From the IMG/VR virus record IMGVR_UViG_2648501130_000004: a stretch of 19,480 bases of DNA; one strand, 5' to 3'. Shown in pieces: positions 5,252 through 7,935 of the stretch. Under the pieces are notes generated by a model that was not told the DNA's origin, searched no databases, and saw nothing but the letters and a program-made list of their open reading frames with translations. Both the position numbers and the translations under genes were made by a program. Position 1 is the stretch's first letter; every line of letters begins with the position of its first letter. The stretch is from a virus. Lineage: Duplodnaviria; Heunggongvirae; Uroviricota; Caudoviricetes.

Positions 5252-6076
5252 TCAGGCGGTGAAAGTACCAATAAAGGTTTCTACTTTGCTGTCTTTGAAT
5301 TTTTCAACAAGCAGATCACGAAATTCGTTAGCCATTTCTTCCTGCACTGCTTCCAGCTGAATAATGCGCAGAACCAGTACAGGGCGATCACCAGTGATAA
5401 TGCTGAGGCGTAATTTAAACGGACGTTCTTTCAGGCCTTCAAACGGAACGCATTTAAACTCAAATGCTACTGGCATAATGTCTTTGGTTTTCGCTTCGAC
5501 AGACTCCATCAGAGAGCGTTTGCCGCTGAAGTCATTGTCTTCAAAATCAGCGGTCTGGTTTGCTTCAATCGTGATTTTACGGACCGCCGCAGCCGCTTTT
5601 GTTGCCTGAATGGCGTCACCATTAGCATCAAAGCCCACAAGGTAGTCGGCCCAGTCTTCAATCCATTCTGCCAGTGACTTCTGGGAGTTACGCTCGCCGT
5701 TAACAGACAACAGGGCAGAGAACGGTGCTGTCTTTTTCAGTTTGAGAGTGGCGGTGTTATCTGCGTGACCTGGTTCATCAATAGTACCCAGGTTAAGCAC
5801 ACTGACGGCTCGCATATTATCAGCATCGATAAAGCAGCGGGTGCCTTCATCTGCAAGATCTTTAGAATAACGGGTAAAGTCATCGATGCTGGCAGTGGAA
5901 AGCGCACCACGGAAACGGAAGCGATTTAAATTAAATTTTTCCAGATCATGAATGCGGAAATTCTCAGGCAATGCCACAGCATCGGCACCAATCTTACTGA
6001 TAATTTCATTAACACCCTGAGCAGAAATAAGGGCATGGATTTGATTAATTGCGGTTGTGTCTAAGTTCTGAGACAT
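5252..6076 (-). CDS. YfdQ-like phage protein (DUF2303 family, function unknown)
   Basis: 274-aa ORF; resembles in length and sequence the CPS-53 YfdQ family as I recall it; GAGGA RBS 7 nt upstream of the ATG. Confidence 0.75.
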
Positions 6077-6141
6077 AATAAGTCCTCACTATATAAAGAT
6101 ATTCAGTGATGAGATAAATAATCAGTTTATTAAAAACGATA

Positions 6142-6504
6142 TTAACGACCTGCTGCGCGGAGTTTTCCGTCAGGTTCACCGGCAAGAGTCAGTAATTGTC
6201 CCTGGTCTTCCTGCAGAATAGTCAGGCGACCACCGCGATTGACATACATCGGCGTTTCGGTGGTGTCTTCTTCGGAAATTTTCCCGCGGTTAGTCGGGCG
6301 AACATATGAGAGTTTGTGTTTGATTTTTACACGGTTCTCATCAAACGGTTCGATTTCCAGGTTGAGCGAGACCTTACCTTTGGTTTTCGTGTTCATCACA
6401 CCGGAAGCGACTTCACTGAGAACAGCGCCGATTTTGGTTTCAAATACGCCGCCGTCCAGCTCCCCGATAAATGCCTGCACATCAGTACTGCGTTCGCTAG
6501 CCAT
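6142..6504 (-). CDS. YfdP-like small phage protein (function unknown)
   Basis: ORF track extends to 6735, but the credible start is ATG 6504 (MASERSTDVQ...) preceded by GAGGAG, giving 120 aa; the upstream extension is GC-rich leader with no RBS. Confidence 0.65.
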   Translation of the reverse strand: MASERSTDVQAFIGELDGGVFETKIGAVLSEVASGVMNTKTKGKVSLNLEIEPFDENRVKIKHKLSYVRPTNRGKISEEDTTETPMYVNRGGRLTILQEDQGQLLTLAGEPDGKLRAAGR

Positions 6505-6649
6505 TTTGCTGCTCCTCATCATATCGACCCTGCAAGGTCGGTTGGTTTCTCCACAAAACAGAGAAGAACACCTGCGGTGGCAGCCGCCCGGATGGATTGG
6601 GTTATGAGCCCGTCGTCCGGTGATGCCCTTCTCTGTTTTGTAAAAAGAG

Positions 6650-6698
6650 CGGTACCAGCCGGAAGCAAGTGTACAAACTGGTACCGCCAAAGCAGTGG
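6650..6698 (-). terminator. Intrinsic terminator inside the pL leader (tL-like)
   Basis: On the minus strand GCGGTACCAG-(19 nt loop)-CTGGTACCGC, a perfect 10-bp stem, followed by UCUUUUUA. Confidence 0.5.
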
Positions 6699-7104
6699 CT
6701 GTTGTGGTGGGGTTGTCACTCAGGCGTATGGTCAACCTGACAATCCGGTGTCCTCAACGGGGAAAGAGTAACCCCGCCATACTTACCGCCGCGCCATTTC
6801 GCGGATTACCACAACGCTGAGAGCACTTAGCCAGTTACGGCACCACACTTTGTCGCGGTTCCATAAATGCCCTCATCGTTGCACCCTGGTCTCTTCCCAG
6901 GCGTCAAACCGGATCGCCACGCTGGTTAGGCGTCTTATCAGCATCATCATTGACTTGCACATTCCGGCTACCTGGTTTGTTTGCCCGAGCAAGGAGTGGA
7001 TTGTCCCCTTTAACGTCCCCAGACCGCTAACGACGCATGTGCCATACGCCGTGTTACAACCAAATTTAGTTTAATCTTGCCTGTGTTATGTTTCTTTTAG
7101 ATAC

Positions 7105-7132
7105 ATTATGTATCTCAAGGGTACATTGTCAA
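7105..7132 (-). promoter_or_regulatory. pL-like early-left promoter (TTGACA - 16 bp - CATAAT) overlapped by a perfect palindromic operator AGATACA-tta-TGTATCT (7099..7115)
   Basis: Minus-strand -35 TTGACA at 7132..7127 and -10 CATAAT at 7110..7105; sits directly downstream of the cI terminator, as lambda pL/oL sits relative to cI. Confidence 0.5.
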
Positions 7133-7134
7133 GT

Positions 7135-7158
7135 ATAAAAAAACCTGCCGAAGCAGGT
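7135..7158 (-). terminator. Intrinsic terminator of the cI transcript
   Basis: Minus-strand hairpin ACCTGC-ttcg-GCAGGT followed by a run of about 8 U, 13 nt after the cI stop. Confidence 0.7.
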
Positions 7159-7170
7159 TATAAATATTGA

Positions 7171-7845
7171 TTAGGCCTTTATTTTGTATCTTCTTGGTTT
7201 TCCCGAGAAAATCACTGTACCAATTATAGAGCAATTACCGTTAATCTTAATGTAAGGCTCAGGCCAGTTTGGGTTTAATGCTTTGAGATAACGCTGTGTT
7301 CCATCTTCTATCAATCGCTTGAAGGTGGTTTCGCCTGTATCGTGCATCAATGCAATAACGTCGTCACCGTGGCAGGCAGGGACTTCGGGATCAACAAAAA
7401 TCATGTCTCCAGGGCGGTACTCATCAATCATTGAATCACCAATCACCCGCAAGATATAAGTCATTTCGCCACAGGGTACAGGGCAGGGGTAAGTTTCTGC
7501 TGTGCTCAAATCAACCTCAGAATAGCCAACTTCTTTCCATGCTCCGGCCTGTACCCATGATATGACAGGGACTAACGTTATTTGTTTGTTAGTGATTGAA
7601 ACATCAGGTTTTTTTGTGATGTTCGTGGTCTGGTGTTCTTGATCAAGCCATCCGACAGGCAGGTCGAAACATTTTTCGATGTGCCGCGCCATGCTGTCAC
7701 CGATATTTTTAGTAGCACCATCTCCCATAAACCTGCTGGTCTGGGTTGGCTCGCGATCAATCATGGTGGCAAAGGAAGAATTCCCGCCAACACCATCTCT
7801 CAGTTTTCTGGCGTTAGACCGCCGGATGTCATGGATTGTTTTCAT
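7171..7845 (-). CDS. CI-like prophage repressor (N-terminal HTH, C-terminal S24 LexA-type autopeptidase domain)
   Basis: 224-aa ORF; C-terminal LRVIGDSMIDEYRPGDMIFVDPE... is characteristic of S24 peptidase repressors; divergent from cro. Confidence 0.88.
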   Translation of the reverse strand: MKTIHDIRRSNARKLRDGVGGNSSFATMIDREPTQTSRFMGDGATKNIGDSMARHIEKCFDLPVGWLDQEHQTTNITKKPDVSITNKQITLVPVISWVQAGAWKEVGYSEVDLSTAETYPCPVPCGEMTYILRVIGDSMIDEYRPGDMIFVDPEVPACHGDDVIALMHDTGETTFKRLIEDGTQRYLKALNPNWPEPYIKINGNCSIIGTVIFSGKPRRYKIKA

Positions 7846-7935
7846 AACGAAATTAAAACCTTTGTACCGATAAGGTACAAGTATCTTGAAGGTTCATTTC
7901 AATCATGTAATATGTATATCGGAGGTACATATTGT
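7846..7935. promoter_or_regulatory. Immunity-region operator/promoter (OR-like): inverted repeat TTGTACC-gataa-GGTACAA (7862..7880) plus candidate PR (TTGAAG 7886..7891, 16 bp, TAATAT 7908..7913)
   Basis: 90-bp divergent intergenic region between the cI and cro starts; palindrome and promoter hexamers read directly from the sequence. Confidence 0.5.

Follow-up and report, generated by a model that had tools for sequence, protein, structure and literature searches.

The leader that separates the early-left promoter pL from the first early-left gene in the virus record IMGVR_UViG_2648501130_000004 (Duplodnaviria; Heunggongvirae; Uroviricota; Caudoviricetes) is a mosaic of three portable, widely distributed non-coding RNA modules. 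The whole stretch of DNA analysed, 19 480 nucleotides (nt) long, is referred to below as the window; coordinates are those of the window, and the leader is transcribed from its minus strand. Downstream of pL the leader carries a pseudoknotted structured RNA (module A), a structured element known from the region just upstream of the small RNA (sRNA) DicF (module B) and an sRNA of the DicF superfamily with its own terminator. A long duplex follows and extends almost to the yfdP-like gene that opens the protein-coding part of the operon. We conclude that this leader is probably a repressor-controlled precursor of several non-coding RNAs, comparable to the dicBF operon of the Qin prophage and placed directly behind pL.

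The first-pass annotation had described a structured leader with a terminator and without an N-like gene. Among its proposals, that of a regulatory RNA ending at the hairpin is essentially right, the hairpin being the terminator of the DicF-superfamily sRNA. The absence of N also stands, and no boxA/boxB element was found above chance. Its suggestion that expression might depend on a put-like element is not supported, and the make-up of three modules had escaped it.

Composition, relatives and folding of the leader

The leader is about 593 nt long. Its GC content is 0.545–0.555 over positions 6400–7000, against 0.355–0.375 at 7000–7300 and 0.365–0.39 at 5900–6200, that is, about 0.55 compared with 0.36–0.39 in the flanks. 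On the RNA strand, G exceeds C. The predicted folding energy of the 593-nt transcript is -230.5 kcal/mol, compared with -197.8 ± 6.6 kcal/mol for shuffled sequences (z = -4.94), and none of the 100 shuffles was as stable. The long, GC-rich and structured leader noted at first pass is borne out by these values.

The leader is identical (100%) to that of the Escherichia phage Ayreon and 98–99% identical to those of phage cdtI, a series of Stx2c-converting phages and phage 2H10. There are partial matches to mEp460, SfV and many other phages. The set of matching genomes changes from one stretch of the leader to the next, which identifies the leader as a mosaic of modules A, B and the sRNA.

Rfam was searched at gathering and at permissive thresholds with the window and seven related loci. 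No match was obtained for module A (even at E <= 5–10), for module B or for the window sRNA; the matches obtained were isrK and C4 elsewhere in the window, transfer RNAs (tRNAs) and one weak match to DicF (RF00039) in a Klebsiella Uetakevirus. A full-text literature search for the sequences of the modules found no paper. Two other kinds of element were considered and rejected. Repeat arrays, either ToxI-like or CRISPR-like, do not apply to a leader without direct or tandem repeats, and the Pas sRNAs of pathogenic Escherichia coli belong to a different locus, the late region of lambdoid prophages.

The DicF-type small RNA and its terminator

The hairpin already recognized as a terminator at first pass lies, with its U-tract, at 6687..6642. 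It has perfect 10-nt arms, GCGGTACCAG and CTGGTACCGC (6649–6658 and 6678–6687), with 19 nt between them; the stem is extended by two G–U pairs, after which comes UCUUUUUAC. A simple terminator scan missed this hairpin because its loop is longer than 8 nt.

The window sequence at the position of DicF in Qin is CAGCCACUGCUUUGGCGGUACCAGUUUGUACACUUGCUUCCGGCUGGUACCGCUCUUUUU. It has in common with DicF the string UUUGGCGGUAYCAGUUU, located at the same position after module B. The marks by which DicF is recognized, a conserved terminator 5' arm (UUUGGCGG..CAGUU) and a Rho-independent 3' end, are both present in the window sRNA. Its position is also that of DicF, in a repressor-controlled early-left operon and directly after the element of about 115 nt included in the 190-nt precursor.

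DicF is made from a transcript of the repressor-controlled promoter dicBp and is processed by RNase III to a 190-nt form and by RNase E to a 53-nt form; the dicBF terminator is leaky, and RNase III cleavage of the read-through transcripts, which reach dicB, gives a 72-nt form (PMC10448788; PMC5069750). The window locus and dicBF are alike in several respects. Both are early-left operons of lambdoid elements under repressor control, with the same element of about 115 nt (90–94% identity) directly upstream of an sRNA whose terminator stem begins with the shared string and ends in a U-tract. In both, one duplex immediately precedes the 115-nt element, at the site where RNase III generates the 190-nt precursor of DicF, and another follows the terminator and runs up to the ribosome-binding site of the next gene. 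The window differs from dicBF in that it has neither ydfABC between promoter and RNA nor dicB downstream, and in that an additional structured RNA of 245 nt (module A) comes ahead. Its sRNA lacks the first ~19 nt of DicF, and the loop and the 3' arm differ.

A model of the sRNA family (R2) was built from ten other sRNA variants, with window-type sequences excluded. Its sole significant match in 40 kb was at 6707..6637 (27 bits, E = 2.5e-5), the next best hit scoring 10.6 bits. There are at least eight alternative sRNA cassettes behind module B in different phages, each of which begins its stem with (U)UGGCGG and ends in a U-tract. Further variants are found after tRNA-Arg in Uetakeviruses and in the leader of mEp390. 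The window-type sRNA has escaped annotation, although it occurs in 1593 of 5426 complete E. coli genomes (29%), including Stx2c-converting phages of O157:H7.

The loops of the cassettes all hold C/U-rich motifs resembling anti-Shine–Dalgarno sequences (CUCC in DicF, CUUCC in the window, UUCCCUUUCU in Uetakeviruses), which fits trans-acting sRNAs with diversified seeds. Host mRNAs are the most likely targets of the window sRNA, which would act on them in trans via its loop; these targets probably differ from those of DicF. Judged by its sequence, it is a new variant of the DicF kind that shares the position, scaffold and terminator of DicF, is missed by the Rfam model RF00039 and has no ftsZ-pairing segment.

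Two other loci carry related arrangements. In the record PP818812 ('Actinobacillus phage vB_Apl-pPE4'; positions 1600–1790 of the extracted locus, L136) module B has another sequence in place of its 5' part and is followed by two tandem copies of the sRNA cassette; this DicA–YdaT–Kil–exonuclease VIII locus has a typical enterobacterial lambdoid look. In phage P1 (locus L264, 1229–1262) the 'dicF-like region' is followed by a candidate sRNA, CCAGUUUGCCCAUCUUCGGGUGGGCGUUUUUU, whose divergence puts it out of reach of R2; the genes for tRNA-Asn and tRNA-Thr come after it in the C1-controlled ban operon.

Module B, the pre-DicF element

Previously seen but uncharacterised, module B is 90–94% identical to the segment that directly precedes DicF in the ydfC–dicB interval of Qin-type prophages. 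In the Qin-type locus L004, for example, the counterpart of window positions 6815..6693 is 2501–2623 (90% identity), which ends just before DicF. Measured back from the terminator of L004, 190 nt lead to about position 2500, which places the RNase III end at the junction between an upstream duplex and the closing stem of module B. The counterpart of this junction in the window is the base of the module A hairpin P6, at about 6816/6815.

A diverged homologue is annotated in the GenBank record of phage P1 as the 'dicF-like region' (68472–68573), just after the C1-controlled promoter Pban. The ban operon of phage P1 (Pban/Op72) thus resembles the window in being a repressor-controlled early operon that contains both module B and module A, with module B followed by a small hairpin and a U-tract. 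The arrangement differs: in phage P1 the order is module B, tRNAs, tciABC, trnI, module A and ban over about 2.4 kb, whereas in the window modules A and B and the sRNA succeed each other within 450 nt. In addition, module A of phage P1 has no P6 hairpin.

In the alignment of module B, 89.5% of cells are paired, compared with 36–62% in slid controls, and there are six compensatory pairs. Compensatory changes between window-, Qin- and P1-type copies affect the closing stem and the third hairpin. The closing stem was not found by eye in the module B sequence of phage P1.

The predicted cloverleaf-like fold of module B recalls a tRNA, and the module starts directly after GCUCUCAGCGUUGU, which in Uetakeviruses is the exact start point of tRNA-Arg. 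By the tRNA detectors it is not a tRNA: ARAGORN found no tRNA or tmRNA gene in the window and the Rfam tRNA model (RF00005) had no match.

Several observations concern the borders of module B. The minus-strand string GUUG at 6812–6815 belongs both to the 3' arm of P6 in module A and to the 5' arm of the closing stem of module B; the two helices, mutually exclusive at this point, could constitute a folding switch or a processing determinant. In the Enterobacter phage Tyrion (locus L012, about 1372–1505) the same stem, GUUGUGG ... CCACAAC, closes the slot that follows module A, and the cargo is an unrelated insert of about 115 nt annotated as a coding sequence of 53 amino acids. The slot after module A seems to accept varied cargo: a tRNA, module B or something else. 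The Tyrion locus also contains, at 2298–2362, a match to int-alpA RNA (RF02996; 44 bits, over the gathering score). Short junction strings such as GCUCUCAGCGUUGUGG are shared and recur at module boundaries.

Module A, a pseudoknotted RNA

The alignment of 31 diverse copies of module A shows invariant blocks separated by hairpins that vary in length and sequence. The proposed architecture comprises helix P1, which is a hairpin, a P2 stem around a variable insert, the invariant block GGUAGCCGGAAUGUGCAAG, and helices P4 and P5, the latter with the loop GAAGAGA. The 7-nt loop of P4 (YUMACCA) is pseudoknotted to a downstream GGUG/GGUU. Many copies, including that of the window, have after P5 a long hairpin, P6, whose pairing was read from the sequence and the alignment; its arms in the window are CAACGAUGAGGGCAUU and AGUGCUCUCAGCGUUG, and the 3' arm abuts the next module. 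The P6 duplex is a candidate substrate of RNase III. All of the helices are present in the window copy.

In these sequences 98.4% of the structure cells are paired and compensatory changes are found in 10 of the 26 pairs. None of 500 shuffles reached the observed value, and only 28–56% of cells are paired in slid controls. The pseudoknot itself covaries: C–G in 28 sequences is replaced by A–U in three, among them the window. Two U–G pairs (23:33 and 46:106) are invariant and other G–U pairs are frequent, so that the structure is possible on the transcribed strand alone. The orientation of module A is always that of the neighbouring tRNA genes.

RNAalifold prefers, over the local covarying hairpin P1, a pairing between GCACAU (7026–7031; loop and 3' arm of P1) and AUGUGC (6938–6943; part of the GGUAGCCGGAAUGUGCAAG block). 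This predicted pairing may represent a second pseudoknot or an alternative conformation, and lies beyond the reach of covariation analysis because both strings are invariant.

A covariance model built for module A (R1) was run with filters off on the window, which spans the region from cI through Q and beyond. It gave a single copy (147 bits, E = 2e-45). The ban region of phage P1 also contains one copy (141 bits), and none was found in HK022, SfV or Qin-type loci. Of 5426 complete E. coli genomes, 1833 carry module A, always without annotation, and the module occurs in at least 10 enterobacterial genera. A scan of viral contigs with an invariant 19-mer revealed more than 120 loci with 98 distinct core sequences.

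The contexts of module A are diverse. In phage-plasmids of the P1, P7 and D6 type it lies between tRNA-Ile (trnI) and ban. In the Uetakeviruses phiV10, typing phage 9, SPN9TCW, Tyrion and BUCT711 it ends 1–3 nt before tRNA-Arg, which is followed by a DicF-like sRNA. In mEp390 a terminator precedes pL, and the pL leader has module A about 49 nt from its start, then a DicF-like sRNA and a long-range stem. Linkage between tRNAs and small RNAs is known from the sRNAs derived from 3' external transcribed spacers (3'-ETS) of E. coli tRNA operons and from the species 1 and 2 RNAs of T4, which are co-transcribed with tRNAs and released by tRNA-processing nucleases. The Uetakevirus units, with module A just before the tRNA and the sRNA after it, resemble these; the window differs in that its slot is occupied by the cloverleaf-like, non-tRNA element instead of a tRNA.

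Module A appears to be undescribed, with neither an Rfam family nor a paper for its sequence nor an annotation. We tentatively regard it as a new class of structured phage RNA with a function of its own, found in lambdoid prophages, P1-type phage-plasmids and Uetakeviruses and always co-transcribed with tRNAs, tRNA-like elements or DicF-type sRNAs. It is most likely a stable RNA that is released separately and acts in trans. RNAs with this kind of conservation have usually proved to be riboswitches, ribozymes or protein-binding RNAs. Module A may bind a protein or ligand, for example as a decoy or sponge for a host nuclease, for a tRNA-targeting defence or for a global RNA-binding protein; it may also be a self-processing RNA or an N-independent antiterminator unrelated to put.

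The duplex after the terminator

Immediately downstream of the U-tract, two 25-nt arms enclose two small hairpins (table 1). The folding energy of this region is -46.3 kcal/mol (z = -5.64). Compensatory changes in the duplex are found among three divergent relatives (L103, L174 and L131), which have different downstream genes. In Qin, an equivalent duplex with the arms AGUGAAUUUUGUGAUG and CAUCACAAAAUUCAUU lies between DicF and dicB, just before dicB. By analogy, RNase III may cut the duplex of the window and in this way part the sRNA from the mRNA that follows.

A model for the expression of the leader

On the model of dicBF, inactivation of the cI-like repressor would allow pL to fire, and module A, module B and the DicF-family sRNA would be transcribed in this order. 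The hairpin and U-tract of the sRNA would halt part of the transcripts at about 6642. RNase III would cut the long duplex at the boundary between modules A and B, the point equivalent to the 5' end of the 190-nt DicF precursor in Qin, and RNase E would cut just 3' of module B to give an sRNA of about 59 nt that includes the terminator. Polymerases that pass the leaky terminator would go on to yfdP and the other early-left genes; on these read-through transcripts the post-terminator duplex would be a second target of RNase III, which would detach the sRNA from the mRNA. The untranslated RNA, being heavily structured and richer in G than in C, should be a poor substrate for Rho. If the only intrinsic terminator is partial, as in dicBF, N and nut would then not be needed.

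Several points weigh against this model. The Rfam model RF00039, which scores the genuine DicF of L004 at 72.5 bits, finds nothing in the window at its gathering score of 48 bits, nor on 6300–7300 when the cutoff is relaxed to E <= 5. The segment by which DicF pairs with the ftsZ ribosome-binding site, UUUUACUCCGUGACUG, is replaced by UUUGUACACUUGCUUCCGG in the window sRNA, so that a DicF-like function is not established by conservation of this segment. The number of compensatory pairs in module B is not above that of shuffles (147 of 500 reach it), which makes its covariation support moderate. Module A is without an assigned function, and the explanation is in this respect architectural and not mechanistic. 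The transcription start, the efficiency of termination and all of the cleavage sites are those that we infer. Finally, a stem of 10 G–C-rich pairs followed by five U may be an efficient terminator, in which case some aid to read-through would be needed. A test of duplex formation with ftsZ (RNAduplex) is uninformative for the window sRNA, since genuine DicF itself was indistinguishable from shuffled sequences in this test.

Alternative explanations

A different view of the leader would make it mainly a cis-regulatory 5' untranslated region (UTR) or attenuator, in which the hairpin is a regulated terminator, the duplex controls the stability and translation of yfdP mRNA and the RNAs are by-products. 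The duplex does end about 35 nt before the Shine–Dalgarno sequence of yfdP, and RNase III processing is known to influence the stability of the dicBF transcript (PMC10448788). The duplex also travels with different downstream genes. However, modules A and B and the sRNA are each found independently in unrelated genomic contexts, which fits self-contained RNA genes better than the leader of a single gene. The sRNA slot, moreover, receives many cassettes that keep the terminator and vary the loop, which is what seed diversification among trans-acting sRNAs should produce. We therefore consider a purely cis-acting leader unlikely.

In the main rival to our model, module A would be a cis-acting processive antiterminator, like put in function and not in sequence, that modifies its own polymerase so as to pass the DicF-type terminator and later ones, in place of N. 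The phage has neither N nor nut. In two unrelated lambdoid leaders (those of the window and of mEp390) module A starts 47–49 nt after the inferred pL start and before the terminator, and an invariant core with a pseudoknot is expected of an RNA that binds a macromolecule. The put element of HK022 is an RNA of about 70 nt with two stem–loops, placed at the 5' end of the transcript and present as a putL/putR pair (PMC9378689). The likeness to the window lies in a lambdoid phage without N that makes a structured RNA shortly after pL, ahead of terminators. Module A differs in that it is 180–245 nt long, has five or six helices and a pseudoknot, begins about 47 nt from the start site and is single-copy. 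Nothing was found in the HK022 immunity region with an nhmmer profile of module A or with R1, although no put-derived model was built, and blastn of this region against the leader gave matches of at most 18 nt (E >= 0.85). A 9-mer shared by putL and module A, CAUGCGUCG, is at chance level and was dismissed; localization of putL and putR by inverted repeats was ambiguous and was not used. No second copy of module A was found by R1 on the pR side or elsewhere in the window, and the paired arrangement of put is absent.

The contexts of module A also argue against antitermination. In phage P1 it comes after the terminator and tRNAs of the operon and directly abuts the ban ribosome-binding site, and in Uetakeviruses it heads a small tRNA/sRNA unit and not a long operon. 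Qin-type dicBF operons manage without it, as does SfV with the same downstream genes. Antitermination by module A thus appears improbable. The proposal that early-left expression relies on a put-like element is not supported, for similar reasons: with no similarity to put, a single copy, ill-suited contexts next to ban and in a tRNA unit, and a dicBF terminator that is simply leaky, such reliance is not required.

Signals of the N/nut type are also missing. For CGCTCTTA with at most one mismatch there are eight sites in the window compared with 11.8 expected, and the sole site in the leader (6651..6644) coincides with an arm of the terminator and its U-tract. No rrn-type boxA with up to two mismatches was found in the leader.

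A short N-like protein, or any other small protein, encoded in the leader is very improbable. Contrary to the first-pass annotation, which saw no open reading frame (ORF) of 60 amino acids or more on this strand, two exist mechanically: a GTG ORF of 66 amino acids (6719..6519) and an in-frame extension of the yfdP-like gene from TTG 6735. A TTG ORF of 39 amino acids (6992..6873) is also present. Hypothetical proteins are annotated in this region in Ayreon and in some RefSeq records, and the 66-amino-acid frame is open in several relatives. None of the leader ORFs matches a Pfam family or has an arginine-rich motif, though, and their GTG and TTG starts are not preceded by a Shine–Dalgarno sequence. 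Substitutions between homologues are flat across codon positions 1/2/3 in all three frames (27/30/29, 30/29/27 and 29/27/30), so that neither long ORF shows a coding signature. Indels that are not multiples of three break the frames in the hairpins of module A and in divergent relatives, and the variation that exists is compensatory in RNA stems. No arginine-rich, N-like first gene was found behind pL, the N-termini of YfdP and of the SfV protein orf33 not being arginine-rich. The earlier statement that the leader lacks an N-like gene therefore holds.

The least credible alternative is that the conserved structures act as DNA (a single-strand initiation site, a recombination hotspot or mosaic module junctions): modules do lie at mosaic boundaries with recurrent junction strings, and module A of phage P1 is just before the replicative helicase gene ban, but the many conserved G–U pairs would be C–A mismatches on the opposite strand, the structures keep one orientation with respect to promoters, tRNA genes and terminators, and the family includes experimentally detected RNAs, namely DicF and its 190-nt precursor (PMC10448788).

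Promoter, operator and neighbouring genes

The features of the locus are listed in table 1. The genes around the leader have the lambdoid layout: the cI-like repressor gene is followed rightward by cro and the immunity region, and Q lies further right.

Table 1. Features of the early-left region of the window (strand '.' for the operator-like palindrome).
Feature	Position	Strand	Basis and remarks
cI-like repressor, LexA/S24 peptidase family, ymfK-like	7171..7845	-	ORF; Pfam Peptidase_S24, E = 1.5e-26; labelled repressor/cI in Ayreon and SfV
Intrinsic terminator of the repressor transcript, just upstream of pL	7142..7159	-	AACCTGCTTCGGCAGGTT then TTTTTTT; annotated terminator in Ayreon and SfV
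pL-type early-left promoter	7105..7132	-	TTGACA-16-CATAAT, 11 of 12 consensus positions; annotated promoter in Ayreon
Operator-like perfect palindrome	7099..7115	.	AGATACATTATGTATCT, overlaps the -10 of pL
Module A, conserved pseudoknotted structured RNA	6812..7057	-	P1–P5 core 7057..6880; 3' hairpin P6 6881..6812
Module B, pre-DicF element	6701..6815	-	Closing stem GUUGUGGU / ACCACAAC and three hairpins; cloverleaf-like four-way junction (predicted fold)
DicF-superfamily sRNA with intrinsic terminator	~6642..6700	-	Stem 6687..6649, U-tract 6648..6642; 5' end by analogy with DicF
Long-range duplex enclosing two small hairpins	6553..6641	-	25-nt arms 6553–6577 and 6617–6641; starts right after the U-tract
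Proximal 5' UTR of the yfdP-like gene	6505..6552	-	Small hairpin 6542..6523; Shine–Dalgarno GAGGAG 6517..6512
yfdP-like gene, first early-left protein gene, 120 amino acids	6142..6504	-	Followed by yfdQ (DUF2303), a yfdR-like gene and DUF551 genes

The promoter proposed at first pass, with a palindrome over its -10, was confirmed at 7132..7105; it is the top-scoring promoter-like site of the entire 19.5-kb window. Transcription from it would start near 7098. A second, degenerate copy of the operator (three mismatches) lies between cI and cro, at 7923–7939. The credible start of the yfdP-like gene is ATG 6504, preceded by the Shine–Dalgarno sequence given in table 1.

On the pR side, the ORF 8728–9564, labelled 'immunity region', contains on the plus strand matches to isrK (RF01394, 58.9 bits; 9088–9164) and to C4 antisense RNA (RF01695, 80.7 bits; 9189–9276). 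The isrK terminator (9145–9158) has a mid-operon position. Both early operons of this phage thus contain an embedded sRNA with its own terminator.

Two relatives show other states of the region. SfV (locus L002, 3001–4033) has the same cI, pL and downstream yfdP operon; modules A and B are replaced by orf33, which encodes an acidic, 98-amino-acid protein without a Pfam family and not N-like, and by a terminator. What SfV retains is the 3' arm from the stem of the sRNA terminator, together with the U-tract and the duplex that follows. In the CPS-53 prophage of E. coli K-12 (locus L265, 5586–5604) the final 19 nt of the leader are kept before yfdP; the 357 nt further upstream are unrelated to the leader and carry GACGG-rich repeats, which indicates that this remnant has lost the promoter and the RNA modules.

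Significance for temperate enterobacterial phages

In one earlier study, no DicF or DicB homologues were detected in the phage genomes then available (PMC5069750). DicF, until now treated as a single sRNA of Qin-type prophages, appears here as one of at least eight interchangeable cassettes behind a common element in active phages. These cassettes point to a family of phage sRNAs in which the scaffold and the processing context are conserved and the target-binding loops vary, and which would be deployed at the very start of induction.

Module A adds a pseudoknotted RNA, supported by covariation and without an Rfam entry, that is common to three very different groups of phages. The locus offers a concrete, testable model for how lambdoid phages without N run their early operon through a long untranslated region. 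If our interpretation is true, the module A class and the variable sRNA slot together form a modular RNA operon that is the first to be switched on after derepression in temperate enterobacterial phages.

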